Numbered from the stretch's first letter, positions 2,197 to 17,758 are shown. The stretch is DNA of 64,000 bases from Candidatus Poribacteria bacterium (GCA_963665235.2 CAXXLX010000001.1:3328001-3392000); one strand, 5' to 3'. Translations and numbers: made by a program. Notes: generated from the letters alone by a model not told the origin.

Positions 2197-2323
2197 ATTT
2201 GTATAGAAACCGAAAAAACAGCACATGGACAAATTCCGTTAGCGTCCTGCTATTGGTTTCTCTATCACTTTGAAGTTTTAGCACCATTTTCCGAGACCCT
2301 ATATTTCTCAAGGAGAATTCTTG

Positions 2324-5300
2324 ATGTTTAGTCGTGAAAAGTCCCCAATCATTGTGTGTCTTCTGTTTCTTATAGTCTGCCCGTTCTGTTTCTTATCCAT
2401 TGCACACGCCCAAGATGAAACGAGCGACGCAAAAGTCATTGAACGTTACAAACTGATGCTGAATCGTAAACCGAAAGAGGGGAGTACATTCGACCGGGTC
2501 TATCAGTTTTATCTCGAAGGTGCCGGGCTGGATGCAATGCTCAGCGATTATCAGACAGAGGCGCTAGCCAACCCGAACAATTTTAACGTTCAACTTATCT
2601 TAGGGCATCTATACAAACGACTCGGCAAAGATGCTGAAGCGGTCGCTGCATATCAACACGCTGTCCAACTCGCGCCTGACAGCTATTATCCGCATTTTGC
2701 CTTGGGACAGATGCAGGCGGCCTTACGTCAACATGAGGAAGCAATCGGCGAGCTAACAAAAGCAGCTACACTGTCCGAACAGGCACAGAACGTGTCCCTC
2801 GAAGAATTAACCGCAATATACAAAGCACTCGGACACGCCTATTTCCGAAGAGACAACGTCGAAGACGCAATTCAGGCGTGGCAAAAAATATCTGAACTGA
2901 ACCCGCAGGACATCTTCGCACGGATTGAACTGGCAGATCTCTTCCGAGAACAGGAACTCTACGAGCAAGCAATATCGCAACACGAAACAATAATTCAGCA
3001 GAAACAGGATGACCCGTATCGGGTGTGCCTGAGCCATCGGGAAATTGGGAATATTCACCAGGCGAAAGGCGATTATCGGGCTGCCGTTCAAAGCTATGAT
3101 GCCGCACTTGCCCTAACCGCCCCCGGCAACTGGCTCCGCAAAGACCTACAACACCGTATCATCGGCATCTATGCAGCGGACAGTAATTGGGAAGGCTTAA
3201 TCAAGTACTATCAAGGCAAACTTGAAGCAACGCCAAACGAACCGGAACTCCTCGGTTTGTTAGCAGCCGCGTCCATTGAAAACCAGCAGCTTGAAGAAGG
3301 CATCAGCACATATCGAAAAGGATTGGAACTTGCACCAACCGACACGAACCTACGTTTAAACCTTATCGCCTCGCTCCGAAACGCAGAGAAATTTGAGGAC
3401 GCAGCAGCGGAATACGAAAAGCTCAGCGAACAGGCACCTGACGACTTCGGTATCTATCGCGAACTAGGCGAACTCTATCTGCAGCTCGGAAATAGGGACA
3501 AAGCTAAGGCAGTATATCAAAAAATGATTGAGCGGGCCCCAAACAGTGCGGGCACTCACCTTATCCTCGCAGAAATTTACGCCGGACACGAATGGCTCGA
3601 CGATGCCATCGCCCAATATGAGAAAGCGAGCTCGCTTGAACCGAACAATCTCGATTACATAGAATATTTCGGAGAGTTCTATTTTCGTCAAGGCAATCGT
3701 GAGAAAGCACTTGACACGTGGAATCGGATGGTCGCCGGCGATAAGAACACCGCTGAGAATCACGCGCAACTTGCACAGCTACTCAACGCGAAAAATTTCA
3801 AAACTGAGGCGGTCGCAGCAATCCGAAAAGCCGTTGCACTAATGCCAGATGAATACCGCTATCGTGAAACGTTGGCAAACCAGCTCATGGAGCACAAGGA
3901 ATACGATGAAGCACTCACCGAATACACAGCGGCGATGAAACTTGCACCCAACCCGTTCTTTGCCGAAAAGATGGATGACCAAAGAATTGAACTCTACCGC
4001 AGACAAGGGACACTCCTAGAAAAAATTGAACTTCTCGAAGCGGAGCTTGAAAAACCGGGCTTAAGTGATACCGAACAGTTCACAAATTACAAACAGCTCA
4101 CCAAAATGTCCCTCAAATTAACCAACATCACTTATGCCCTTGAAGTGCTTTTGAAAGCTAAAGCACTTCAACCCGATGATGTTGTCGTCAACCGGTGGCT
4201 CGCGGACATCTACACACGGCAAGGCAGACGCAACGAGGCAAATGCTATCTATACGCACCTAATCGCAATAGACACCGCAAACGCCCGTGAATACCATGCA
4301 AACATCGCAAAGTCCTACCTGAACGTGATGGATTTTGAAGCAGCAACAACGGCAGCTAAACAGGTAATAGCCCATAGTCCACGGAATCCAGAGGGACATC
4401 AACTGCTTGCACAAATTGCCAAGCAATCCAAAAACTATGATACCGCCATAGACAGCCTAAAACAGGCAATTCGGCTACGGCCAGAAGCAATTGACACACG
4501 CGCTGAGCTAGCTGATATTTATAAACTTTCTGGAAATCTTCATCAAGCCCTATCACAGTACTGGCGGTGTTGGGACTTAAGCGGTAGTGTTAGCGATAAA
4601 CTCACCTTTGTCAAACCGCTCTCTGAAATATATTATGACCTCGGTAGACGCGGCGAATTTGAAGAAAAGCTAAAACAATTGGCGAAATCTAATACTACCG
4701 GGGTCGGCCCTGTCTTGGCACTTGCTGAACTTTACCGCATGGAAGGCGACCTGCCGAGTGCACGTTTCCAACTAGCGCAGGCTTTGAACAAGCAACGTGA
4801 AAATCCGGAACTCTTGAGCCACCTCGTCCAAATCAGCATAGCACTTGGGAATGTCCAGGACGCGCTTACGTATCAGCAGCGACTTGTCAAAGCCAATCCT
4901 GACGCTACTAACCAACAAAGACTTGGCGAATTGCTGTTTGACGCAGGACGGGAACAGGAAGCGATTCAGGCGTGGACAAAATTACTTCACGCGAAAAACC
5001 GGACACTTGAAGCTGAAATCAAACTCGCCGCTTTATTACTCCGGCACGGGTTATCAGAGGAGGCGTTTTTTGTGCTTGACCGGGCAGCAGAGAAAATTGC
5101 GGGGACCGATGCACACATCCCACTTTATCGATTGGGAGCTATGTTAGTCGGAATGAATGAACCGGAACGCGCTCGCACCTATTTCCAACGCATTCTTGAG
5201 ATGCCCGAGCCGACTATAGATGCTAAAAATCAGAAAACCACAAAACCGACTATCTACACCGCTTCTACCATACCAGGCGTTGACATTAACAAATTTGAAA

Positions 5301-8300
5301 TCGCCCGCGGAAACATCAGCAGGATTCAGAGTAAACCCACTTTCACGGGGGGCGGTACGGCATGGATACCGAAAACTTTTGAAGAGACCCAAGCCGCCGC
5401 GCTCGTACATTTGACTACAATTGCACAGCGGCAGGGAAAACTTCCTCAACTCGTTCAACATTTTGAGGCAAATGCTGAAGCGAATCCGACTGACATCAAA
5501 GCACTTGAAACCTTAGTGCAGCTCTATACCCTAGTCCAGTACAACGACAAGGCTGAAAAAACGATTGATAGGTTAATCGAAATCTCACCCAATGATGCGG
5601 CATACCAACCGCTACGAGTGCATCGCGCAGTGCGGGAAAACCTCAATTATGAAACGTTCAAAAAATCACTCGACGAGATACCCGGCTTAGTCCCCGAAGC
5701 ACGGCTCCGATATACCGCAGAGTATGCGCAACTCCTGTCCCGTTCAGATAAAAAAGATGACGCAATAAAACTCATGCAGGAAATTGAGGATGTAAACGTC
5801 ACTGACATCAGCACCGGTTTTATGTTAGTTGAAGCTTTTCTGATGATGGATAAGACAGATAGCGCGGAGAAAATCCTTCTTAATCTACCTATACCTCCTC
5901 AGAAACAGCAGCAGCAATATCAACGATTGTTTGAAAGACTCACAGACGCTTACATCGACCAAGGCGAGCTGGATAAAACTGCTGCGCTTTTCTGGGTCTT
6001 CTGTGAACGTACAAAACCCAACACTATAAATTCGAGACGCGTTGCTGCACTTCCACAGAGCTCCTATTATTATGGCGGTTATAGGCCAATTCAGACCAGT
6101 TATCCCACAACCACAGTCTACTTCAATCGAAGTCGTCTGAATTATCTCCAATCTATCTTCCGTGAGTTTTGGATGCGGGAACAGCAGGAAACCTTATATA
6201 CAAAATTCCGAACAGAATTAGACGCGGCAAAAGGGAGAGACCGTATCTATCCTAGTCTGGCACTCAGCTACTGCTATTGGTGGGCTGAAAAACGCGATAA
6301 AGCACAAAAGGTGCTGTCAACCTTACAACAGGAATTTCCTGATGACCTGACGCTTAAACTCAACACCGCTTTTGTCTCTATTCAGAACGGAAAACATGGA
6401 GAGGCTTTAAAAATGATTACCGACCTGGCTGAAATAGAACCGAGAAATCGGCAGCAATATCGTAATTTATTACTACAGCTTGCCATTCGTACGGGTGATT
6501 CTGTTAGTTTGCGTGCACTGATTACAAAATTGTTAAATTCGGCAGTCGGCGCGCAGGAGCTTTATCAGCTCTCACAGACACTCCAAAACGCTGGGTTCAC
6601 ACAGTACGCAATTTCGGCTGGAAAAAAAGCGATGACATTAGCAATGGCACAACGAAACCCGAACTTTCTGATAGACCTAGCGGAACATCTCGGACGACTC
6701 GGTAGGGGGCAGGATGCTGCACGTCTTGCAGAACGCGCCTTACGGTTCGCCAGTCAAACCGACCGATACGGACGGACGATGTATTCATGGAATATGCGAC
6801 AGGCTGTTAGTTTGACGAGTCACTCAAAAAACATGCAGGAACGCGAAAAACGGTTCATAGCAGAGGCCCAAAAAAATCCGGAAGCATTCCAAGCACAACT
6901 TAAACTCGCCATGTTTTATGAGAACACCAATCAGATTGAAAAAGCCTCCCAGGGGTTCAAGAAGGCATTGGAATTGCAACCCAAAGACAGCATAACTCGC
7001 CTTAGATACGTCCGAATGCTGGAGCGTGCAGGGAAAGCTATGGAGGCTCTGCCGGAATATACAACCCTTTTGAAAAATGATTCAACCGCACTCGGGTATG
7101 ACTACGAAAAAGCAATTGATGCGTTTGTCGCCGCTGGCGAAATTGACGCGCTGATTTCACTCACAAAAGAGCTGATTCTCCCTGTCGGACAATACGCTGG
7201 CAACGATTTCACACAAAAGGTTGCCCGGCGATGTCTCACAGAAAACAGACCTGACGCTGCTATAGAAATATTCGAAAAAATCCTTCAGGTCCATCCGAGC
7301 TGGGACTATATCCATCGGGAATTAGCAGCGGCATATCTTACAGCCGGCAACTCTGAAAAAGCAATTCAGTACTTAACAGAAAAATATGAGCTCGGGAAGA
7401 CATCCTTGTCCGAAACAGAGTTTCAATTGAAAATAGCGGAATTCCATGAAGCCGCCGGTGGACGAGAAAGCGCAATTCAATTTTTACGAGAACAAACCGA
7501 AACAGGTGGCGAATCGACCGTTGTTTTCAAACTTGCCGAATACTATGAGGTGAGCGGTGAATTAGAAAATTTCATAGCAGAATATGAAGCAAAACTCGCT
7601 GAAAATCCTTCAGCAACAAAATTGCTCTATATTTTAACCACTCTGAAGATAAAAGCGGATGATATTGAGGGGGCAACCGCACACGTCACTACATTGATTG
7701 ACAACGCGCTTATGTCCATTAATACGCAGTGGCTCTATAATCTTGCCGATGCATCTGACAAAGCTAATGCACACCCCCTTCAATTCCGCCTCCTCGAAGC
7801 CGCAGCGGAGAAGCTTGAACGCCAGAATTCGTGGAAACTTGCAGATTGTTACGAGAAATTAGGTGAGGCTTATGCCAAAAGAGGCGAGCAGGAGAAAGCA
7901 CAAAACGCATTACGTAAAATGGGCACCCTCCAAACTATGGAGGATAGCAGCCAGAGTGTATATGAAAAAAGAGGACTCGCCTCAACCTATATGCGACACG
8001 AAATGTGGGACGACGCTGAAAAGCTCCTAACCGAAATCATTAACGACCTCTCCGCCTCCTCGTACGAACGGGAACGTGCACAAGAGCAGTTTATGCAAAT
8101 AAAACAGAATAGGGACAAGCACGCAACCGCAAAAGAACTTGCCAAGAAAACAGAGGACCTGGATATAGGCATGCAACGGGCTATGGCAAAAGAGTTCATG
8201 CAGCAGAACCAGCTGGAGGAGGCAGTAGAAATTTTTGAACGAATTACGGAAACGATGCCTGAAGACCTGGAATCTCGCGCACAACTTGCAACGCTCTATT

Positions 8301-11300
8301 CCCGCCTCAATCAGCACGAAAAAGCCTCTCAAGTGTGGACAGCACTCCTCGAGGCCGACCCAGAAAATACAAGGTATCAGGATGGGCTCGTCAACAGTCT
8401 GCAAAATGCTGGTAAACTGAACGAGGCATTTGAACTCGCGCAGAAATACATTCAAACTGAACCGGAGGTCGGTGTCCATTACGTACGACTTGCAAAACTC
8501 TATGCAGCTGATGATAAGGTAGACGAAGCTATTGCCACCTATGAAAAAGCACTCGAATTTTCACCCGGAGACCGTCAAATTTATCTGAAGTTAGGGGACC
8601 TTTATCTTCTCAATGATGACATGGCGGCTGCTGAAAACGCATTCAGGAACGCCATTCAATTTACCGCATCAGAATGGGAACGGCAACGGACTGAACGGAA
8701 ATTGATAGGACTCTATCGCTCCCAGGGAAAGTTAGCAGCGATGCTACAGAAGGCTGAAGCTGAAGGCACACTCACTTATGAGATGCAAAAGGAATATGCC
8801 AAGCACTATCAGAATGTAGGCAATCTCGAAAAGGCGGCTGATGCCTACAAAAAAGTCCTCGACATGACAACGCAAAACTACCAACGACAGGACGTTATCT
8901 CCACGTTAATTGACATATATGCCAAACTTAACAAGAACGACGCAGCACTACAACTCTACGAAGCTGAAGTCCTCGCGAATCCCGGGTCGGCAACTAGGTC
9001 AACGAGTTATGGTCAGTCCGGTATTACAATTAACTTCACTAACGATGAAATACGCAAGGCTTTAGTTAAAACGTATAAAGAGCAAGGAAAATTAGACTCA
9101 TTGAAAACTATCTTTGAGGATAGACAGGAGAAAGAACCGGGGAACGTTCCTGTAATTGAGATGCTTGCTGAGATTTACCGCAATGCAGACAACCACCAAA
9201 AGGCAGCCGAAGCCTACCAGAAACTTTCCAAAGTGCTATCCGGCCCTAAGAAAGTCCACACTGCTTACGATGCCGCTATCGCACTTCATAAAAGCGGACA
9301 ACCCGAATTGGCGAAGGCACAACTTAAGAAAGCCGAAGCCGCGCTTCAAGTCAGCAGTCGAAAACAGGACGACTCATTTCTCGCCGCGCTCGCTACCTTA
9401 TGTCTTAAGAATCAGATGTACGACAGTGCTATTGAACTCGCTGACGCAGCAGTCACTGAAATGCAACGTTCCGGGGACACCTGGGTACAGGAATATTTTT
9501 ACGAGCTGCTTGGGAAAAGCTACCTCGGTGCCAAACGTTATGAGGAGGCTTTTGCAGCATATCGGCAGATGGCAAATAGTGCTGACGATAGCTACACACG
9601 AGATAGGGCGGAAACGGAAATGGATAAAATCGCCAAAGCGCACAACCTCTATGAAAAATGGATACCTGAACAACTTAAGCAGGTTCAGGAGAACCCTGAC
9701 GATGTCAACGCACGGTTGGAACTTGCTGAAAGTTACGAATACACCAAAAAAATCAAAGAAACCGTTGAGCAGTACGAAAAACTTGCCGAACTGCAACCTG
9801 ATAACGTACAGTGGTACAAAAAATTAGCAGACCTTTATCAAAAGCCAGAGAGCCTCGAGACAGGCGAAGTCATTGAAGGCACTGCCCTTACGCTCGACGG
9901 AAATCGGAGTTTCGTCGAAATCGGTGATAGCGAGTCTTTAAACAACATTACGGAACAGTTGACGGTATCTGCCTGGATTAAACCTGTGAGTTTCCCACAA
10001 AGATATGTCCCCATAATTTATAAAGGAGACAAGCGAACCCCAGATATTACCAATCGCAGCTTCACACTCTGGCTGCGGGATGACAAGAGAATTCAATTCT
10101 CTACCTCTCCGGGGGGGCAAGCAGAAAAATACATTTTTTCGCCATCAGGGACAATCCAGCTAAACAGATGGTATCACGTAGCAGGGATCATTGACCCTAA
10201 AAGAGATGTCATCAAACTATTTATAGATGGAATTGAGGTCGCAAGGACAAATGTTAACGGCAAGGAAAGTATCCATAAAAGCGAACACCCACTTCGGATT
10301 GGCGGTTCACACGAAGAAGAGGTAACTACCCACGCCTCCTTTGCCGGACAAATTGATGAGGTGCGTGTCTGGAACATTGCACGCACTGAAGACCAAATCC
10401 GCGCCGATATGAACAGACAACTCAACGGCGACGAACCCGGCCTAGTCGGATATTGGAAATTTGACGCGGAAACGGAAGACGTTATTACCGACCACTCCCC
10501 TAACGAAAACAGTGGTAAACGCATTGGAGAGACCGAACTTGAGCCTTATACCCGCCCAGTTTTCGAGGTCTTAAAAAATGAGAAATTACCACACATAGAC
10601 AATGCTTATGAAAAGGCGATTGAACTTGAACCCACCTCATACCAACTTTACGATGGATGGGCAAAGTTCTATGTCAAAACGAACGACACAGCAAGTGCAG
10701 AAGCGGTATATCGCCAGGCATTGGAGGTTTCGCTAACACAGAGTGAACACGATTCAGCAATTCAGGGTATTGTCGGCCTCTATCCCGGCGAGGAACAAAA
10801 GGATAAGCGCATCGCCATTCTTGAAGAGCTCAAACCGAAAATGAAAAAAAGTGCTGTCCTGCACGAACTTCTGGGGGCCCTCTACGAAAAAATAGGCGAT
10901 TCTGAAAAAGCAAATATCGCCTACGACCGATGGGTGAAAATGCGGGAAAGGGAGTTGAACCGTGGAGATAGTGCATCAAGCTACCGTAGTTTTGCGAATA
11001 CACTCATGGAGAAAGACCGCTATCCAGAAATGGCACTCAAATTCGCAAAACGCGCATCACAAAGATATACCGGTTCCAGCCAATACCAATACCTTGCAAC
11101 ACTTGGACAGGCTTATATTGCTAATGAACTTTATGATACCGCCCTAAAACATTTCAAACAGGCACTAAATACTATATCCTCCGAGTATGCATCGGACCAA
11201 TTTTGGAGACAGGTCGCTAACGCAAACAAGAACGTTAAGGACAAAGAACGTTATCTTCAAATGCTTGAAACGTTGATAAATACTACGCCATTGGAAAACG

Positions 11301-12520
11301 CAAGTAGTCGGGCAAATGTTTACCGTGTCCTCGCTCAATTCTATAGTGAAAACGATACACCTGAGAACGTGGAAAGCTACCTCTTAGCAAAAACAGGTTT
11401 TGTCCCTGAAACCCGTTGGCTAACGCTCGGACCGTTCAAAAACATAGACTCGCACGGCGTTTTGTATGCTTACATCCCTGAAGAGACTACACGCATCGAT
11501 ACAACAGCGAAATATTATGGGGAAGATGGCCTCATCAGTTGGAAAAAATCGAAAGATGAGTTATTAGATGGTCATTACGTTTTTTCCTATGATGACGATT
11601 GGAGCGCGGCCTATGTATGGGCAATTCTTATCTCACCCGATGAACGCGACATTGTCATGCGATTTGATAGCGACGACCAGGGAACAGTCTGGTTAAACGG
11701 AAAACAGGTTTTTAGGCATGATAGAACAAGTGGAACAAGAATTGACCGATACACCATTCCTGTCTCCTTGAAGCAGGGAGAAAATACTATCCTTATCAAG
11801 GTTTGCAATGCAAGAATGACCTGGGATTTTTATATGCGCCTTACGGATGCCGATGGCATCCCGTTTAGCGACCTGAAATTCAAAACTGCGGATGAATTGC
11901 TAAACGCACCGCCGCCTGAACCAACATTCCACGTAAATGCTGTCCTCGGCCTGGCTGAATACTACAGTAAAAACAACATGCCCGACAAGGCAATGGAACA
12001 GATGCTACAAACTGGCATCATTCATGAAGATGCGTGGTTGATCCTCGGCCCCTTTGACAATTCCGGCGGAGTTGGGCACAATACCGCTTATATTCCGGAA
12101 GACACAGCACAAATTGACGTAACCGCCGAATATGAGGGGGTAGCAGGCCAGATTCGTTGGAACAAATCAACCGATAACGTTTTCGACGGTTTTATCGATC
12201 TGGGCAAGGATGTCAATTGGTCTGTCTCTTATGCATGGGCAACCGTAACCTCGCCCGACGAACGGGAAGTGCAATTCAGATTTGGTAGCGATGATCAGGG
12301 AAAAATATGGTTAAATGGCAAAGAGGTATTCGCCAACCCAGAGGGTGGATGGGCAGTCCTTGATAGAGACGTTATCCCAGTGACACTTAAGGCAGGCAAA
12401 AACAGTGTCCTTGTCAAAGTCTGCAACGGAGAATTGAGCTGGGGATTCTTCTTCCGAATTACGGACACGGATGGCAACCCCTTTGAAGATTTGAAAATCA
12501 ACGACCCGCAAGACAATTAA
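2324..12520 (+). CDS. Giant secreted tetratricopeptide-repeat protein with a LamG domain and two C-terminal PA14/jelly-roll-like modules
   Basis: AGGAG RBS and signal peptide (..AHA|QD). Many TPR motifs (AxxxYxxAxxLxP). LamG signature TVSAWIKP..WYHVAG..LFIDG..FAGQIDEVRVWN at about 9880-10560. Two W...GPF..SDDQGxxWLNG..LKxGxNxxLxKVCN modules. Confidence 0.92.
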   Translation: MFSREKSPIIVCLLFLIVCPFCFLSIAHAQDETSDAKVIERYKLMLNRKPKEGSTFDRVYQFYLEGAGLDAMLSDYQTEALANPNNFNVQLILGHLYKRLGKDAEAVAAYQHAVQLAPDSYYPHFALGQMQAALRQHEEAIGELTKAATLSEQAQNVSLEELTAIYKALGHAYFRRDNVEDAIQAWQKISELNPQDIFARIELADLFREQELYEQAISQHETIIQQKQDDPYRVCLSHREIGNIHQAKGDYRAAVQSYDAALALTAPGNWLRKDLQHRIIGIYAADSNWEGLIKYYQGKLEATPNEPELLGLLAAASIENQQLEEGISTYRKGLELAPTDTNLRLNLIASLRNAEKFEDAAAEYEKLSEQAPDDFGIYRELGELYLQLGNRDKAKAVYQKMIERAPNSAGTHLILAEIYAGHEWLDDAIAQYEKASSLEPNNLDYIEYFGEFYFRQGNREKALDTWNRMVAGDKNTAENHAQLAQLLNAKNFKTEAVAAIRKAVALMPDEYRYRETLANQLMEHKEYDEALTEYTAAMKLAPNPFFAEKMDDQRIELYRRQGTLLEKIELLEAELEKPGLSDTEQFTNYKQLTKMSLKLTNITYALEVLLKAKALQPDDVVVNRWLADIYTRQGRRNEANAIYTHLIAIDTANAREYHANIAKSYLNVMDFEAATTAAKQVIAHSPRNPEGHQLLAQIAKQSKNYDTAIDSLKQAIRLRPEAIDTRAELADIYKLSGNLHQALSQYWRCWDLSGSVSDKLTFVKPLSEIYYDLGRRGEFEEKLKQLAKSNTTGVGPVLALAELYRMEGDLPSARFQLAQALNKQRENPELLSHLVQISIALGNVQDALTYQQRLVKANPDATNQQRLGELLFDAGREQEAIQAWTKLLHAKNRTLEAEIKLAALLLRHGLSEEAFFVLDRAAEKIAGTDAHIPLYRLGAMLVGMNEPERARTYFQRILEMPEPTIDAKNQKTTKPTIYTASTIPGVDINKFEIARGNISRIQSKPTFTGGGTAWIPKTFEETQAAALVHLTTIAQRQGKLPQLVQHFEANAEANPTDIKALETLVQLYTLVQYNDKAEKTIDRLIEISPNDAAYQPLRVHRAVRENLNYETFKKSLDEIPGLVPEARLRYTAEYAQLLSRSDKKDDAIKLMQEIEDVNVTDISTGFMLVEAFLMMDKTDSAEKILLNLPIPPQKQQQQYQRLFERLTDAYIDQGELDKTAALFWVFCERTKPNTINSRRVAALPQSSYYYGGYRPIQTSYPTTTVYFNRSRLNYLQSIFREFWMREQQETLYTKFRTELDAAKGRDRIYPSLALSYCYWWAEKRDKAQKVLSTLQQEFPDDLTLKLNTAFVSIQNGKHGEALKMITDLAEIEPRNRQQYRNLLLQLAIRTGDSVSLRALITKLLNSAVGAQELYQLSQTLQNAGFTQYAISAGKKAMTLAMAQRNPNFLIDLAEHLGRLGRGQDAARLAERALRFASQTDRYGRTMYSWNMRQAVSLTSHSKNMQEREKRFIAEAQKNPEAFQAQLKLAMFYENTNQIEKASQGFKKALELQPKDSITRLRYVRMLERAGKAMEALPEYTTLLKNDSTALGYDYEKAIDAFVAAGEIDALISLTKELILPVGQYAGNDFTQKVARRCLTENRPDAAIEIFEKILQVHPSWDYIHRELAAAYLTAGNSEKAIQYLTEKYELGKTSLSETEFQLKIAEFHEAAGGRESAIQFLREQTETGGESTVVFKLAEYYEVSGELENFIAEYEAKLAENPSATKLLYILTTLKIKADDIEGATAHVTTLIDNALMSINTQWLYNLADASDKANAHPLQFRLLEAAAEKLERQNSWKLADCYEKLGEAYAKRGEQEKAQNALRKMGTLQTMEDSSQSVYEKRGLASTYMRHEMWDDAEKLLTEIINDLSASSYERERAQEQFMQIKQNRDKHATAKELAKKTEDLDIGMQRAMAKEFMQQNQLEEAVEIFERITETMPEDLESRAQLATLYSRLNQHEKASQVWTALLEADPENTRYQDGLVNSLQNAGKLNEAFELAQKYIQTEPEVGVHYVRLAKLYAADDKVDEAIATYEKALEFSPGDRQIYLKLGDLYLLNDDMAAAENAFRNAIQFTASEWERQRTERKLIGLYRSQGKLAAMLQKAEAEGTLTYEMQKEYAKHYQNVGNLEKAADAYKKVLDMTTQNYQRQDVISTLIDIYAKLNKNDAALQLYEAEVLANPGSATRSTSYGQSGITINFTNDEIRKALVKTYKEQGKLDSLKTIFEDRQEKEPGNVPVIEMLAEIYRNADNHQKAAEAYQKLSKVLSGPKKVHTAYDAAIALHKSGQPELAKAQLKKAEAALQVSSRKQDDSFLAALATLCLKNQMYDSAIELADAAVTEMQRSGDTWVQEYFYELLGKSYLGAKRYEEAFAAYRQMANSADDSYTRDRAETEMDKIAKAHNLYEKWIPEQLKQVQENPDDVNARLELAESYEYTKKIKETVEQYEKLAELQPDNVQWYKKLADLYQKPESLETGEVIEGTALTLDGNRSFVEIGDSESLNNITEQLTVSAWIKPVSFPQRYVPIIYKGDKRTPDITNRSFTLWLRDDKRIQFSTSPGGQAEKYIFSPSGTIQLNRWYHVAGIIDPKRDVIKLFIDGIEVARTNVNGKESIHKSEHPLRIGGSHEEEVTTHASFAGQIDEVRVWNIARTEDQIRADMNRQLNGDEPGLVGYWKFDAETEDVITDHSPNENSGKRIGETELEPYTRPVFEVLKNEKLPHIDNAYEKAIELEPTSYQLYDGWAKFYVKTNDTASAEAVYRQALEVSLTQSEHDSAIQGIVGLYPGEEQKDKRIAILEELKPKMKKSAVLHELLGALYEKIGDSEKANIAYDRWVKMRERELNRGDSASSYRSFANTLMEKDRYPEMALKFAKRASQRYTGSSQYQYLATLGQAYIANELYDTALKHFKQALNTISSEYASDQFWRQVANANKNVKDKERYLQMLETLINTTPLENASSRANVYRVLAQFYSENDTPENVESYLLAKTGFVPETRWLTLGPFKNIDSHGVLYAYIPEETTRIDTTAKYYGEDGLISWKKSKDELLDGHYVFSYDDDWSAAYVWAILISPDERDIVMRFDSDDQGTVWLNGKQVFRHDRTSGTRIDRYTIPVSLKQGENTILIKVCNARMTWDFYMRLTDADGIPFSDLKFKTADELLNAPPPEPTFHVNAVLGLAEYYSKNNMPDKAMEQMLQTGIIHEDAWLILGPFDNSGGVGHNTAYIPEDTAQIDVTAEYEGVAGQIRWNKSTDNVFDGFIDLGKDVNWSVSYAWATVTSPDEREVQFRFGSDDQGKIWLNGKEVFANPEGGWAVLDRDVIPVTLKAGKNSVLVKVCNGELSWGFFFRITDTDGNPFEDLKINDPQDN

Positions 12521-12547
12521 AGAGGCGGACCTATCAATTTTTAAAAG

Positions 12548-12576
12548 TTGCATTAAAAACAGTTGTTTGATACACT
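12548..12576 (+). promoter_or_regulatory. sigma70-type promoter ahead of a long structured leader
   Basis: TTGCAT-17 nt-TACACT with an extended TG. Confidence 0.5.
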
Positions 12577-12664
12577 ATACCGAACAGGCAGTCCATTTCA
12601 ATTTGTGCCCATTCCAGAAAACTATTTTCTTGACTGATGGCGCGAAATTTTTGAATCGACTTTA

Positions 12665-12936
12665 AATTGCATGGGGGGACCCGACAGTGAGAAACACATC
12701 GCTTTTCAGAAATGAACAGATCCGATATTTGTCGTTCGTTCCAGGATGTTTTGGGCCTGTCCCTACCGGATGTGTTTTAACTAATAGTTTACCCCCCCCC
12801 ATTTATAATTTTACATTTGTTAGATTTATACCACGAGGTAGTGTCGCAGGATTTACAAACTCAAACTGCGATACCTTTACACCCGCACGTGCACACTTCG
12901 CTTTTTTATCGAGTGTTCAGTGCGGTTTTTTGTTTG
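12665..12936 (+). ncRNA. Candidate structured RNA or attenuator leader (family not recognised)
   Basis: Long stem ATGGGGGG/CCCCCCAT plus AAACACATC/GATGTGTTT, internal hairpins, a GTGTCGCAG/CTGCGATAC hairpin, and CCGCAC/GTGCGG followed by a T-tract. Confidence 0.4.
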
Positions 12937-13088
12937 CATTGCGGACATTTGCAATGCTTCGCTCTCTCATTGAGAGAAAAATCCGAGCAGGCGCGGCACG
13001 AAATCCGCCTCCTGCAACGTTCATCCCATGCATTTGTAATGGGAACTGATAAAATACCATTACTAAAAGTAATAGGAGGTACATACCA

Positions 13089-13877
13089 ATGGTACGTTCG
13101 ATAATGTTTTCGCTCTTAGTAATACTCATGTTAATCACGGTTAGCACCATCACGGCAGGACTTCAAGATGGCATCGTGGTCTACTTCACGTTTGACGACG
13201 TTAGTGGTAAGACAATTCGGGATAGTTCTGGTAACGGTCTCGATGCGAACATCGTCGCGAATACTGAGATTGTCAAAGGCAAAAATGGCAATGCCATCAA
13301 GATTACTGCTGCAGGTGCCGATTGTGTGAACGTCCCCGCCGATGAAAAATTGAAAATCAGCGGAGAAATCACAATGGCAGCCTGGGTCTATCACGGCGCA
13401 TGGAATAAAGATGTCCAGTGGTTTGACAAAAACTGCCACAACGGCGGTGAGCATACATCCTACGGCATCGGTGTTTTCGGCGACGGTAATAATTTCAATA
13501 TGTTCTTAGGTTCAGACCAAAATCGGCAAACCTTGAACAAACCGCACGCGCTGAAAACAGACACGTGGCATTATGTCGTTGGCACCTACGATGGTGACGC
13601 GATGAAAATCTACGTCGATGGTAAGCTCGCTGTAGAAGAGGCTAAGAAGTTTAACTTTACTGGCACCAACGACCAAGATTTACGCATCGGTTGTTCAAAA
13701 GATCGAGCAAACTATACGTTTGAGAACGGTATGGTTGACGACGCTGCTATTTGGAGCCGCGCCCTCAGCGAAGCCGAAATCAATGAGGCGATGAACGGCG
13801 GTCTCCTCGACGTTTCACCCCAAAATAAGGCCGCCACAACGTGGGGCAGTATTAAGCAAAGAGCTGACGTGCATTAA
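13089..13877 (+). CDS. Secreted LamG (concanavalin A-like jelly-roll) domain protein
   Basis: GGAGG RBS, signal peptide, YFTFDD..DSSGNG, ITMAAWV, WHYVVGTYDG..IYVDG, and a C-terminal VSPQNKAATTWGSIK tail. Confidence 0.92.
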   Translation: MVRSIMFSLLVILMLITVSTITAGLQDGIVVYFTFDDVSGKTIRDSSGNGLDANIVANTEIVKGKNGNAIKITAAGADCVNVPADEKLKISGEITMAAWVYHGAWNKDVQWFDKNCHNGGEHTSYGIGVFGDGNNFNMFLGSDQNRQTLNKPHALKTDTWHYVVGTYDGDAMKIYVDGKLAVEEAKKFNFTGTNDQDLRIGCSKDRANYTFENGMVDDAAIWSRALSEAEINEAMNGGLLDVSPQNKAATTWGSIKQRADVH

Positions 13878-13897
13878 CCCTTTACTTTCACCTAATT

Positions 13898-13937
13898 AAA
13901 CGGCACAGGGTTCTAAAATCCGTGTGCCGTTTTTTTT
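13898..13937 (+). terminator. Intrinsic terminator
   Basis: AAACGGCACA/TGTGCCGTTT stem followed by a T-run, just after the LamG stop. Confidence 0.8.
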
Positions 13938-13994
13938 CGTAATTCTCCCCCCGTTTTGATATGCTGCGATAGTTTCCCCTATTCCATAGAGCCT

Positions 13995-14403
13995 CTTACT
14001 ATAGACTTTCTTGACATACTCTCCCAGCTAAAGCAAGGGAGATTCTTTTAAAAAGTTCCGCTACGCGTTAGCTATTGGATTGTGGTTTTCAGACGTGTGA
14101 ACGTCCGAGGTCCCACCGAGGACATCCTCAACGGAGATGCTTGGGCTGTTCCAAGTCTTACTGCCCCTAACTCAAAGGACAAGGTTTCCCTGCCCTCGTG
14201 CTTCGCACCTTCTTTATGCTTGTGAATCAGTGCTTTGGTATCCAATGCAGCATGACCCGTCTTTTGGATACCGAAAGCAAAGCACAAAAATGTGGATATT
14301 GACTGGGTATCGCCAGAACATCAGCACACAACCCTACCATAGGTTGAGGTTCGGAACTTCAACATTGGTGGCGTTGAAGGTGGTAATCCGAACCACTGAT
14401 GAT
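13995..14403 (-). ncRNA. Putative ~390-nt structured RNA plus flank-derived guide (stand-alone omegaRNA-like)
   Basis: Lies downstream of the promoter at 14410-14438, has many stems, and reads through the right end into the flank GAAAGTCTATAGTAAG. Confidence 0.55.
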
Positions 14404-14510
14404 ATATATATTATACCACATTTTAATGCAAAAGTCAAATTAAAAACATAAGCTTATGTTCCTACTACATCCCCCAGCTAAAGCACGGGGGTTTTGTAGC
14501 GGGAGACTTG
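14011..14510 (-). mobile_element. Non-autonomous IS200/IS605-family element (PATE-like), with no tnpA or tnpB
   Basis: Minus strand: left end TTTAT|CAAG..AAAA-CCCCCGTGCTTTAGCTGGGGG and right end GAAT-CTCCCTTGCTTTAGCTGGGAG-AGTATGTCAA|. The guide/cleavage tetranucleotides AAAA/TTAT and GAAT/TCAA fit the IS608 pairing rule. Confidence 0.85.
14410..14438 (-). promoter_or_regulatory. Near-consensus sigma70 promoter inside the IS605-like element
   Basis: Minus strand TTGACT-17 nt-TATAAT with TG-n extension. Confidence 0.8.
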
Positions 14511-14545
14511 ATAAACCAACAGTTTCCATAAGTCAGCAACTATTA

Positions 14546-14574
14546 TTGCATCATCCGATAAAACGTTGTATAAT
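14546..14574 (+). promoter_or_regulatory. sigma70-type promoter of rtcB
   Basis: TTGCAT-17 nt-TATAAT. Confidence 0.65.
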
Positions 14575-14632
14575 AAACATATCAGGAAAAACATAACCTT
14601 TCAAAAAATTGACAAATATAGAGGAGCATATC

Positions 14633-16084
14633 ATGGCAAACATAACACTTCAAAAAATTGACGAATATCGTTGGCGCATTCCAAAAAGTTATATGAAAGG
14701 CATGCGTGTAGATGGGATTGTCTATGCCAACGACAAGCTTCTGCAACAAGCAAAAAGCGATGAAGCGTTGCAACAGGTCGCAAACGTCGCGCATCTGCCC
14801 GGTATTGTCAAGCATTCGCTTGCAATGCCAGATTTGCACTGGGGTTACGGTTTCGTTATCGGTGGTGTTGCCGCAACCGACCCGAAGGCGGACGGCGTTG
14901 TTTCGCCCGGCGGCATCGGATACGACATCAACTGTGGCGTTCGCCTCATCCGGACCAATCTTGACATCTCACAACTAGAGGGTAAAAGGAAAGCACTCGT
15001 TGACAAGTTGTTCGACAATGTCCCGTGTGGCGTTGGCTCCAGTGGAAAAATTCGGCTCACTGTCCAAGAGGAGCGACAGATGTTAGAAAAGGGGGCATTG
15101 TGGGCAATTGAACGTGAATACGGTCACCCAGACGACCTCAACTTCACGGAGGCTACTGGCACCCTACACCATGCAAACGCCGATGCGGCAAGTCAACGCG
15201 CCTTAGAGCGTGGCAAAAATCAGCTCGGTACCCTCGGGTCGGGCAACCATTTCCTTGAGGTACAGGCAGTGGACCGCATTTTTCACCGTGAAGCCGCCGA
15301 TGCGATGGGGTTAAGTGAAGGCAATATCTGTGTCATGATTCACACCGGCTCACGTGGTTTCGGCTACCAAATTTGTGATGAACACGTCAAGAGCTGGGTC
15401 AAAGTTGCCGAAAGATACGGCATCAACCTCCCTGACCGGCAGCTTGCATCCGCACCGATTAATTCACCGGAGGGGCAGGATTACATCACCGCAATGGCAT
15501 GCAGTGCAAACTATGCATGGAACAATCGGCAATGTATCATGCACCTCGTTCGCCAGACCTTCATGCAGTTTTTTGACACAACAGAAGATGAACTCGGTTT
15601 AGAGCTGGTCTACGACGTAGCGCATAACATCGGGAAGTTTGAAAAACACACCGTTGATGGCGAAGAACGTGAATTGTTTATCCATCGCAAAGGGGCAACC
15701 CGTGCCTTCCCGGCGGGACATCCAGAAATTCCTGAAAAATATCAGAAAGTCGGGCAGCCTGTACTGATTCCCGGCGATATGGGAACGGCCTCTTACGTGC
15801 TAGTCGGTAATCCCGGTGCAATGGCAGAGACATGGGGGACAACCTGCCACGGTGCCGGTAGAGTCTTATCGCGTCGGAAGGCAGTTGCCTTAACAAAAGA
15901 TAGGTCTATCCAAGCGGACCTTGAAGCGAAAGGCATCTTCGTTCGTGCGGAAGGCAAGCGCACCCTCCAAGAAGAGGTCCCCGAGGCTTACAAGGATGTA
16001 GATGAAGTTGTCCGTGTCGTTGATGAGGCAGGGCTCTCACGCCGTGTGGCCCGGCTGCGTCCGATAGGTGTTGTGAAGGGTTGA
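14633..16084 (+). CDS. rtcB: RNA-splicing/repair ligase RtcB
   Basis: MPDLHWGYGF, GYDINCGVR, GTLGSGNHFLE, IHTGSRG, YDVAHN, HRKGATRAF, PGDMG, CHGAGR, EAYKD; GAGGAG RBS. Confidence 0.97.
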   Translation: MANITLQKIDEYRWRIPKSYMKGMRVDGIVYANDKLLQQAKSDEALQQVANVAHLPGIVKHSLAMPDLHWGYGFVIGGVAATDPKADGVVSPGGIGYDINCGVRLIRTNLDISQLEGKRKALVDKLFDNVPCGVGSSGKIRLTVQEERQMLEKGALWAIEREYGHPDDLNFTEATGTLHHANADAASQRALERGKNQLGTLGSGNHFLEVQAVDRIFHREAADAMGLSEGNICVMIHTGSRGFGYQICDEHVKSWVKVAERYGINLPDRQLASAPINSPEGQDYITAMACSANYAWNNRQCIMHLVRQTFMQFFDTTEDELGLELVYDVAHNIGKFEKHTVDGEERELFIHRKGATRAFPAGHPEIPEKYQKVGQPVLIPGDMGTASYVLVGNPGAMAETWGTTCHGAGRVLSRRKAVALTKDRSIQADLEAKGIFVRAEGKRTLQEEVPEAYKDVDEVVRVVDEAGLSRRVARLRPIGVVKG

Positions 16085-16107
16085 AGCTTCACGACATGGA
16101 GGGAAAA

Positions 16108-17758
16108 ATGAGAAGTTTTAGCACTCAGGGTTGTGTGTATCCTGAAGAGAATTATGTTGTCCCGCGCACGGTGGAGGTTGCCGATTTCATCCGCCGTGTC
16201 AAAGCGGGCAAGTATATTGTGCTCTTTGCACCACGCCAGACCGGTAAGACCACCTTTTTCCGATTAGCACTCTCCGCACTCACAGCAGAAGAGCCATCCT
16301 ATTTCCCGATAGAGTTGGATTTTCAAGACTTGTGCGTATGTTCTCACCTGACACGTTTTACGCGGAGCTTTTCTACAGGATTCGGACCGGCAAATTGCGG
16401 AGGTCTTTCAAAAACACGGTGGCACGCCTTCCGAAGCTCTAACGCAGTTTTTGGACAACACAACGCTAACCGACCATCTTTCTATGATGAGGTTCTTTGA
16501 AGACCTCATGGGTTTTTTGGACAGCGATGCCCATGTGGGGGTATCTGCTTTCAAACGGGTTGTGCTGCTGATTGACGAGTTTGATGGCATTCCTCGGACC
16601 GTCATAAGTCCTTTTCTATACGCGCTCCGCTCTATTTACCTCTCTGATAGGCATCGATGTCCCTACAGCGTTGGGTTTGCGGGAATCAAGGACATTATGG
16701 AACTTGGTTTCGACCCATCTGTTTCACCGTTCAATATTCAGGATGAGTTCAAGTTGCCGAACTTCACCGTTGAACAGGTGGATGCGCTGTTTTCGCAGTA
16801 TACCCATGAAGTTGGACAAACGTTTGACCCGGAGGTCATTGAAATCCTCCATAAGCAGACTGCTGGGCACCCCTTCTTAGTGAATAGAATAGCACAAATA
16901 CTTACTGAAGAATTGGAGATCCCGAAAACGGAGACAATCACCCTATCCCATTTTGGGAAAGCACACGCGTTGCTTATTCAGGAGGACAACACGAACTTCA
17001 CACAACTGATAACCAATATCCGCAGAGACCCCCGTTTTGAGCGCCTCTTGATGAGAGTTGTCTCTTACGATATGGGCGTACGTTTTACGCATTATGATGA
17101 GATTATCAGTGAACTTGCTAAGTATGGCATCATTGGTGGAAGTGCCGATGGCATGTGTGAGATTATCAATCCGATTTATCAGCAATATATCATGCAGGCG
17201 TTCCAACCCTCTTTCAACGGTTTAGAGGACGAGTACTTCGGAAAAAATAGCGATGTGGGTTTTATCGATTACCTCACGCCAAGTGGGACACTTGATATGT
17301 GTCCACTCCTTGATAACTTCAAGGATTTTATTGCGCGCGCAGGAGTTCGCATCCTACAGGTGCCGGAGACCCTCCAGAAGTTTGTTGGGCAATACCTTCT
17401 TTCCGCCTATCTAGGGCAATTTGTCCGGAGTGTAGGGGCTGTGATGTTCTTCGAAGTGCAAACGGGACGGGGAAGGATGGACCTGCTTATTAGCCATAAC
17501 CAGCGTAAGTATATTGTTGAGACCAAGATTTGGGAGGGGCTACCCCGGTATCAAGCAGGTAAAAAGCGGCTCGCTGCCTATCTTCAGTTGGAAAACGCAA
17601 CGGAGGGGTACTATATTGTTTTCGATCATCGTGAATCCACCGAGCCGCGTATAGAGACAGAGACGATTGATGGCGTATCTATTCGGAGTTATGTCATACC
17701 CGTAATACAACAACGACCCTCGAACGGACACCTACAAACAGAATTGGCTATTGGCTAA
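16108..17758 (+). pseudogene. AAA-like ATPase with a C-terminal PD-(D/E)XK-like domain, frameshifted
   Basis: Walker A APRQTGKT is in ORF 16081..16500. Walker B LLIDEFD and GRGRMDLL..IVETK are in ORF 16451..17758. Removing two 2-nt insertions near 16333 and 16386 joins the frames. Confidence 0.8.

Follow-up and report, generated by a model that had tools for sequence, protein, structure and literature searches.

A 500-bp element on the minus strand of a 64,000-nucleotide stretch of a Candidatus Poribacteria genome (G000:C1:3328001-3392000; hereafter the window, whose positions are used for all coordinates without a prefix) lacks protein-coding genes and is a non-autonomous derivative of the IS200/IS605 family. 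It belongs to the palindrome-associated transposable elements (PATEs), probably carries a stand-alone omegaRNA gene, and would be mobilised by a transposase, and serve a TnpB, encoded elsewhere in the genome. We put the probability of this interpretation at roughly 0.72. The host is an uncultured sponge symbiont.

Boundaries, copies, and mobility of the element

Read on the minus strand, the sequence across the element is TTTAT, CAAGTCT...GTATGTCAA, GAAAGTC.... Subterminal imperfect palindromes are present at both ends and kept in all copies, and terminal inverted repeats are absent. In IS608, the tetranucleotides located 5′ of each hairpin pair with the cleavage sites (AAAG and GAAT with TTAC and TCAA, respectively). 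The guide tetranucleotides identified here match their cleavage sites, AAAA with TTAT and GAAT with TCAA. A search of the genome with an nhmmer profile of the element yielded nine full-length copies with 84-100% identity (E 1e-159 to 1e-184) and, besides these, one truncated copy and one divergent variant. TTAT directly precedes all nine full copies and TTTAT seven of them. Every full copy closes with the same right-end sequence, TCAA being last, and the flanks are otherwise unrelated, except that copies c2 and c6 have common flanks, which leaves eight independent sites. Two loci, G000:C1:1018303-1018816 and G000:C3:14403-14891, have identical flanks around elements that differ, and might represent a duplicated region or a strain-variant contig.

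DNA contigs of four public sequencing runs were compared with window positions 13500-15000. One contig each from X1 and X4 passes from position 14010 straight to 14511 and so omits exactly 500 bases, which corresponds to an empty site composed of TTTAT joined directly to the right flank, without a target duplication. The depth of the empty-site contig was 24.5 in X1 and 21 in X4, compared to flank depths of ~26 and 21-32, and the flanking pieces showed no differences. In run X2 the site is occupied, with contigs crossing both junctions (records 9 and 12). The interior had a depth of ~206 versus ~26 for the flank, which fits 8-9 copies per genome. In run X5, which belongs to a second study, the interior is present and these flanks are absent. 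Since a single study includes samples with this site empty and samples with it filled, the boundaries are fixed and the insertion or excision must be recent; the element is evidently still mobile. A reading made earlier from the sequence alone had proposed a still-mobilisable 500-bp minus-strand element with both hairpins, TTTAT and TCAA, and the nine copies and the exact empty site bear this out. Contigs of X2 and X4 also contain the last 36 nucleotides of the right end joined via 36 other letters to the left end and promoter (14046, 14413), implying a mini-form of ~170 bp with the same ends in these samples. When the interior of the window element's family (family A) was searched by BLAST in 40 relatives, none of them of the same genus, only the ends and the promoter were matched.

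Neither tnpA nor tnpB was found inside the element. The longest open reading frames comprise 104 amino acids (antisense) and 71 amino acids, and a Pfam search of both returned no match at E ≤ 1. A small antisense protein was rejected as an explanation, as the 104-residue frame resembles no Pfam family and three of the nine copies (c6, c8, and c9) have it shortened or out of register. Decayed tnpB coding sequence, an outcome that the sequence-only reading had named as speaking against it, was rejected as well: when the element was compared by blastx with the genome's 42 TnpB-like frames, the best E was only 0.46, and the only tnpB-like stretch that recurred consisted of 18 C-terminal residues overlapping the right end (E 1.6-1.8). 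In ~200 nucleotides of the interior, tnpB ancestry was undetectable by blastx, and nhmmer profile positions ~200-316 had no match outside the short copies. Open-frame, Pfam, and blastx checks therefore agree with the earlier statement that the element is devoid of tnpA and tnpB.

Resident TnpA and TnpB elements with the same ends

The genome contains 44 matches to the Zn-ribbon domain of TnpB and 13 to Y1_Tnp, 12 of the latter above the cut-off. Ten tnpB-only elements of ~1.41-1.44 kb have the right end of the window element and ~110 nucleotides of its left end including the promoter, and nine of them possess an open frame of 400/401 amino acids. The encoded protein is a TnpB according to Pfam (PF07282 and PF01385) and to the structures 8EXA/8BF8 (E 1.2e-34). 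An element encoding both TnpA and TnpB starts at G000:C1:3153020, where the left end following TTTAT is nearly identical; a Y1 transposase match of 127.8 bits lies at G000:C1:3153209-3153562. The left-end hairpin is the same in TnpA+TnpB and tnpB-only elements. At the right ends of the autonomous elements, read by eye, the hairpin is also the same, with GAAG...TCAC replacing GAAT...TCAA, which is the change predicted by the IS608 guide rule. Loci with the same ends had been suggested as a check on the sequence-only reading, and both kinds exist. The presence of matching TnpA and TnpB elements means that a transposase and a nuclease that could act in trans are available in this genome. Among the matches listed for relatives of this TnpB (80), all but two come from Candidatus Poribacteria, the two being labelled "uncultured bacterium."

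In TnpB systems, the omegaRNA scaffold extends from the 3′ portion of tnpB through the right end of the element, and the guide lies in the flanking DNA. Profile positions 316-473 of the short element align with the last ~158 nucleotides of the ten tnpB elements (nhmmer, E 3e-12 to 2e-11), and in the latter this homology starts right after the part coding for the Zn-ribbon. The motifs TTGGNTTAG, GTNAGAC, and CCACAA are common to both types of element. Compensatory changes affect 5 of 14 predicted pairs and fall in stem 1 and the right-end hairpin, and the stems predicted for the short element follow the order predicted for the T400, T444, and T414 scaffolds. By sequence and predicted stems, the 3′ ~158 nucleotides are homologous to the omegaRNA region of the tnpB relatives, and we infer that the scaffold is compatible with the resident 400-residue TnpB. 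The sequence-only reading had assigned the entire RNA to guiding a TnpB, possibly a nuclease-dead one, encoded elsewhere. For the 3′ part, this assignment is supported by the homology. The 5′ ~85 nucleotides turned out to form a separate pseudoknotted domain, and a nuclease-dead partner is disfavored, because the D-E-D triad at the three RuvC columns is kept in all nine open 400/401-residue frames. The partner is thus likely to be a nuclease-competent TnpB, as judged from these residues.

Guide sequences and their matches

The different guide of each copy had previously been taken as a sign of a dispersed guide repertoire. It is a normal consequence of guides being flanking DNA, and no further evidence for a repertoire was obtained. 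The guide of the window copy is unique in the genome except for one site with two mismatches that lacks TTAT; for 11 guides, no second genomic site preceded by TTAT was found with ≤ 2 mismatches; and the 20-nucleotide flank of the window copy had no exact match in the viral_contigs set. That guides match only their own flanks fits homing and leaves a targeting repertoire unsupported.

These data also bear on the idea that the copies form a guide repertoire for a nuclease-dead, TldR-like TnpB that regulates host genes. A few TnpB-like frames do lack a catalytic residue: D-E-D is kept in 27 of the 36 TnpB-like frames of ≥ 300 amino acids in the genome, and the others comprise six with P at the E column, one with S at the last D, and two that are truncated. 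However, the frames associated with the ends and scaffold of the element all keep the triad, the guides match their own insertion flanks only, and the window copy is polymorphic like a transposon rather than fixed like a regulator. We consider such a regulatory role to be hardly credible.

The promoter and the predicted transcript

A promoter scan placed a sigma-70 promoter 72 nucleotides inside the left end, reading toward the right end; it agrees with the TTGACT-17-TATAAT promoter announced at ~70 bp. In related genomes, this extended consensus is also located upstream of loci of the rpsU, rpoZ, and tRNA types, which characterizes it as a strong housekeeping promoter of the lineage. BLAST matches to the promoter in relatives were therefore rejected as copies of the element, as they represent this housekeeping consensus. 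The predicted 409-nucleotide transcript has a folding energy of -138.5 kcal/mol compared to -114.1 ± 6.8 kcal/mol in 100 shuffled sequences (z -3.57), none of which folded as well.

A conserved pseudoknotted leader at the 5′ end of the predicted RNA

A profile search revealed that the ~100 nucleotides following the promoter recur in other short protein-free elements with different 3′ parts and ends. In the leader of ~85 nucleotides, helix P1 closes a three-way junction, the arms of which are P2-P3, with a 7-nucleotide bulge in between, and P5; the loop of P5 pairs with the P2-P3 bulge to form a 7-bp pseudoknot. An alignment of 12 sequences from four families supported four nested helices and the pseudoknot, with 93.2% of positions paired compared to 33-46% when the pairing was slid. 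In an alignment of 42 sequences, 96.4% of 1488 cells were paired versus 36.5-49.7% when slid, a value that is biased for the nested helices toward the covariance model that aligned them, the pseudoknot and P5 not being part of that model. For the pseudoknot, 96.6% of the cells were paired and five of seven pairs had double changes; the P5 hairpin was 89.2% paired. Changes on both sides were found for 30 of the 36 leader pairs, and none of 500 shuffles reached the observed values. P1 begins a few bases past the -10 hexamer in nearly all 42 leaders, which positions the fold at the very 5′ end of the predicted RNA.

A covariance model of the nested part of the leader, R1, gave 20 matches in this genome, all of them inside short protein-free elements. 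It matched in 49 of 121 genomes of the order and in 46 of 73 of the same family; outside hits numbered only two and were weak (E 2e-4 and 4.5e-4). At E ≤ 1e-5, 55 of 99 sampled genomes of the family were positive versus none of 51 genomes from eight other families of the phylum. Some genomes contain more than 25-31 leader copies. In 12 loci read by eye, the leader always lay within an element of 430-600 bp, with at least five right-end types and the constant order left-end hairpin, promoter, leader, small hairpin, long hairpin, omegaRNA-like 3′ part, right-end hairpin. None of 30 loci had an open frame of > 155 amino acids from -120 to +520 around the leader.

Known RNA families did not account for the leader. 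Rfam 15, which covers among others group I introns, HDV-like and other ribozymes (HDV, hepatitis delta virus), riboswitches, HEARO, and IS605-associated motifs, had no match at E ≤ 1 in window positions 12000-17000. For 11 related loci it returned only six chance-level microRNA/HgcC rows far below the gathering scores, and for eight further loci nothing at E ≤ 0.1. ARAGORN found no tRNA or tmRNA gene at 13800-14700. HDV-like ribozyme, hammerhead, and tRNA-like leader were rejected as identities, since the conserved nucleotides or loops they require are missing from the alignment, and an IStron or group I intron was rejected, since there is no Rfam signal and the element has its own promoter. 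In the main texts of the open-access literature searched, we found no mention of a 5′ domain of stand-alone omegaRNAs and no paper dealing with both Poribacteria and TnpB. The leader fold thus seems not to have been described before.

The conservation of the leader bears on the question of whether the element might simply be an inert deletion remnant, i.e., an internally deleted tnpB element that is still moved by TnpA and whose RNA-like parts are functionless leftovers. Such an origin would explain why the ends and the 3′ region are common to tnpB elements, and it would accord with the facts that expression is only predicted and that the window copy has scaffold insertions. It does not explain the ~200 nucleotides of interior without detectable tnpB ancestry, nor the heavy compensatory change in 42 leader sequences from many genomes, nor that the leader is always joined to the consensus promoter while being combined with at least five right-end types. 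Compensatory change, a constant promoter, and varied right ends together indicate a selected module rather than debris, and we regard the remnant explanation as quite unlikely.

Alternatively, the promoter-driven RNA, or its leader and middle part at the least, might be a cargo that works as a ribozyme, as a regulatory RNA, or by sequestering a protein. It would serve the element or the host independently of TnpB, with the omegaRNA being secondary. The leader is compact, conserved, pseudoknotted, and without Rfam match, it is portable across families whose scaffolds differ, and it exceeds the needs of a 5′ stabiliser, all of which would suit a cargo. However, it occurs only in protein-free elements of the IS200/IS605 type (20 of 20 genome matches and 30 of 30 loci), each of the 12 visually inspected loci has an omegaRNA-like 3′ end after it, at the element's right end, and its hairpin loops are variable, so that no conserved antisense target is apparent. 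In view of this, a TnpB-independent cargo appears unlikely.

A further possibility is that the fold acts as DNA, in the excised single-stranded circle or at the replication fork, where it might assist TnpA or the handling of strands. As established for IS608, the form in which IS200/IS605 elements move is the single-stranded DNA of the top strand, and TnpA is known to require only the subterminal hairpins. As this strand and the predicted RNA agree in polarity, the covariation would fit a single-stranded DNA structure equally well. The position of the fold, which starts a few bases past the -10 hexamer in nearly all 42 sequences, points instead to the 5′ end of a transcript; moreover, tnpB-encoding elements with the same ends transpose without a leader, and the hairpins alone are known to satisfy TnpA. 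We rate a function at the DNA level as very improbable.

A model for mobilisation and guidance in trans, and points that weigh against it

We propose that the Y1 transposase (TnpA) of resident autonomous elements would recognise the same hairpins, excise the top strand, and paste it 3′ of TTAT. The promoter would drive the synthesis of an RNA of ~400 nucleotides running through the right end into the flank, and the 400-residue TnpB of the 1.4-kb elements would bind and probably trim the 3′ part of this RNA. After excision, the complex would cut the rejoined TTAT and flank, and recombination with a sister copy would restore the element, as in the homing model of Meers et al. (2023). In this way, the element would parasitise both TnpA and TnpB. 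The least certain step is that the leader might protect or mature the guide RNA so that it competes for TnpB: a knotted, base-paired 5′ end could shield the RNA from 5′-end-dependent decay or define its maturation. That the leader represents a new class of functional RNA domain, which guide-only transposons of Poribacteria have acquired and pass among one another and which actively matures or shields the omegaRNA or loads it onto TnpB, is a tentative proposal that we consider possible rather than probable.

Several observations weigh against this model of a guide-only element acting through TnpB. Transcription, RNA ends, and processing of the element are predictions from DNA. About 111 of the last 150 scaffold nucleotides are identical to the T400 scaffold, and compatibility with its TnpB may or may not hold. 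A protein-free family with the same ends, at G000:C1:490753-491347, has a different 5′ region, which indicates that the leader is not obligatory. A simple 5′ hairpin would suffice for protection of the RNA, and the elaborate leader may have another role. As the mobile strand and the RNA have the same polarity, G-T wobbles cannot separate an RNA fold from one of single-stranded DNA. Finally, the scaffold of the window copy is interrupted by the 24-nucleotide insertion and its stem-1 loop is changed, so that this copy could be a poorer guide than its siblings.

Comparison with known systems

Stand-alone omegaRNAs and omegaRNA-bearing PATEs are a kind of element that is already in print. Stand-alone omegaRNAs without an effector or transposase were described as being mobilised and acting in trans, with a biological role that is unknown (Altae-Tran et al., 2023, PNAS, PMC10691335); PATEs were reported to often encode omegaRNAs on which TnpB must act in trans (Meers et al., 2023); and a PATE without open reading frames and with IStron ends was shown (Zedaveinyte et al., 2023). 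The element of the window shares with them the lack of protein genes, the IS200/IS605 ends, the evident mobilisation, effector loci in the same genome, a scaffold at the right end, and a guide outside the element, and action in trans with a compatible TnpB would be expected. Unlike the stand-alone omegaRNAs as described in these reports, its RNA is preceded by a consensus promoter within the element and starts, upstream of the scaffold, with a conserved pseudoknotted domain of ~85 nucleotides. This domain is common to several families with different scaffolds and ends.

The closest relatives in the same genome are the tnpB-only (IS1341-type) elements, e.g., G000:C1:4359062-4360478, which are similar in left end, promoter, right end, TCAA, TTAT, and the last ~158 nucleotides and differ in that they encode the 400-residue TnpB (G000:C1:4359255-4360454) and have neither the leader nor the middle hairpin. 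The TnpB-omegaRNA complex of ISDra2 (8EXA, 8H1J) contains a homolog of the resident TnpB (E 1.2e-34), with which it can be aligned at all three RuvC motifs. ISDra2 also has this guide RNA layout, whereas here the omegaRNA is separated from the protein gene, and the target of ISDra2 is a different pentanucleotide in place of TTAT.

IStrons and their PATE forms without open reading frames are likewise IS605/IS607 elements, in which the left side holds a large structured RNA and the right side an omegaRNA. Unlike them, the element described here has no group I intron signal in Rfam, is transcribed, by prediction, from its own promoter rather than spliced from a host transcript, and has a fold that is a small three-way junction with a pseudoknot.

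In a general comparison, the position of a compact fold at the very 5′ end is reminiscent of 5′-stabiliser hairpins, exonuclease-resistant RNAs, and the HDV-like topology. The strand order of the leader (P2, bulge, P3, P3′, P2′, ..., bulge partner) broadly resembles a nested pseudoknot. None of these families gave an Rfam match. Features of the HDV-like class were not recovered: P3 of the leader has 7 bp and a variable loop, and neither a P1.1-type pairing nor conserved catalytic-type nucleotides are apparent.

With its exact empty site, the element provides natural evidence of a guide-only element that is moving now in an uncultured sponge symbiont. The leader is a well-supported and apparently new 5′ RNA fold, limited to one Poribacteria family among the sampled genomes; it is a candidate for RNA family libraries and might also help to stabilise or process the guide RNAs of TnpB. 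If it is active, gene-less elements would out-compete the tnpB-encoding elements on which they depend, and the leader would be a portable natural 5′ module for the expression of guide RNAs. If it is inert, the finding is that of an ordinary PATE.

Other protein-free families in the genome

At least four further families of promoter-bearing, protein-free elements of the IS200/IS605 type are present in the genome, amounting to ~25 elements together with the family of the window: family B (L041, L042, L046, L079, and L045), family C (L043, L044, L081, and L082), family D (L083), and another protein-free family with a different 5′ region (L014, L025, and L085). The 3′ ends of family C are 91-95% identical over 117 nucleotides to elements with a 388-residue TnpB, and those of family B are 78-81% identical to the region following a 370-residue TnpB. 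The resulting picture is one of hyperparasitism, in which at least four protein-free families of a single genome each combine a strong promoter with the scaffold of a different TnpB family.

Tandem arrays with units of ~32 nucleotides, each containing the TTTAT target motif, occur within or beside short elements. Examples are found in L082 (G000:C1:101900-102900, at about 170-460), in L012 (G000:C1:469800-470430), and at G000:C2:317360-317500.

Features of the element and its surroundings

The coordinates of the features are listed in Table 1. The long middle hairpin of family A is kept in the divergent copy G000:C1:1298508-1298882, with one compensatory and one wobble change as read by eye. 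The 24-nucleotide hairpin insertion in the scaffold linker is present in the window copy and two siblings (3/9), as a variant in one copy, and is absent from the remaining five. Its core of 28-31 nucleotides recurs with 100% identity at 16 further sites of the genome. Their contexts are unrelated and range from a different repeat family to what is probably a coding region and to the scaffolds of short elements other than this one; among these sites are G000:C1:121372, 727684, 893119, 1403183, 1653888, 2373737, and 2521014. The hairpin thus resembles a very small dispersed insertion in its own right. In L080, a family-B element (G000:C1:892300-893300, at about 540-840), an 18-nucleotide unit derived from the hairpin forms a tandem array of ~17 units.

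Table 1. Coordinates of the element and its parts in the window (TAM, transposon-associated motif).
Feature	Position	Strand	Remarks
Whole protein-free IS200/IS605-type element	14011..14510	-	500 bp; full copies matched by nhmmer
TTTAT target site, presumed TAM	14511..14515	-	directly 5′ of the left end; core TTAT 14514-14511
Left-end subterminal hairpin and guide tetranucleotide	14471..14495	-	hairpin 14491-14471; AAAA 14495-14492
Predicted sigma-70 promoter	14410..14438	-	TTGACT-17-TATAAT with TG extended -10; 11/12 matches; predicted start near 14403
5′ leader domain	14319..14401	-	covariation in alignments A1 and A3; model R1 matches 14414-14299 at 73.7 bits
Leader P1	14401-14396 with 14324-14319		
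Leader P2	14394-14387 with 14355-14348		
Leader P3 hairpin	14379-14357		
Leader P5 hairpin	14346-14342 with 14333-14329		
Leader pseudoknot	14386-14380 with 14340-14334		bulge with P5 loop
Long middle hairpin of family A	14231..14279	-	
OmegaRNA scaffold homologue	14011..14195	-	stem 1, TTGAGTTAGG and GTAAGAC motifs, hairpin, CCACAATCC, right-end hairpin
24-nucleotide hairpin insertion in scaffold linker	14106..14129	-	not part of the ancestral element
Right end	14011..14045	-	GAAT guide 14045-14042; hairpin 14041-14021; TCAA cleavage site 14014-14011
Flanking 16 nucleotides, would-be omegaRNA guide	13995..14010	-	placed by the known TnpB omegaRNA layout

The element is located between two genes on the opposite strand (14609-16084 and 13089-13877, both plus), namely a Laminin_G_3-domain gene and rtcB, which encodes an RNA ligase (583 bits). 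The predicted transcript of the element would approach the Laminin_G_3-domain gene from its 3′ end, in antisense orientation. In archaea, RtcB reportedly makes circular omegaRNA isoforms, according to one study; the adjacency to rtcB, which concerns one copy only, is probably due to chance. A single open frame of 3399 amino acids at 2321-12520 (plus strand) ends ~1.5 kb from the element.

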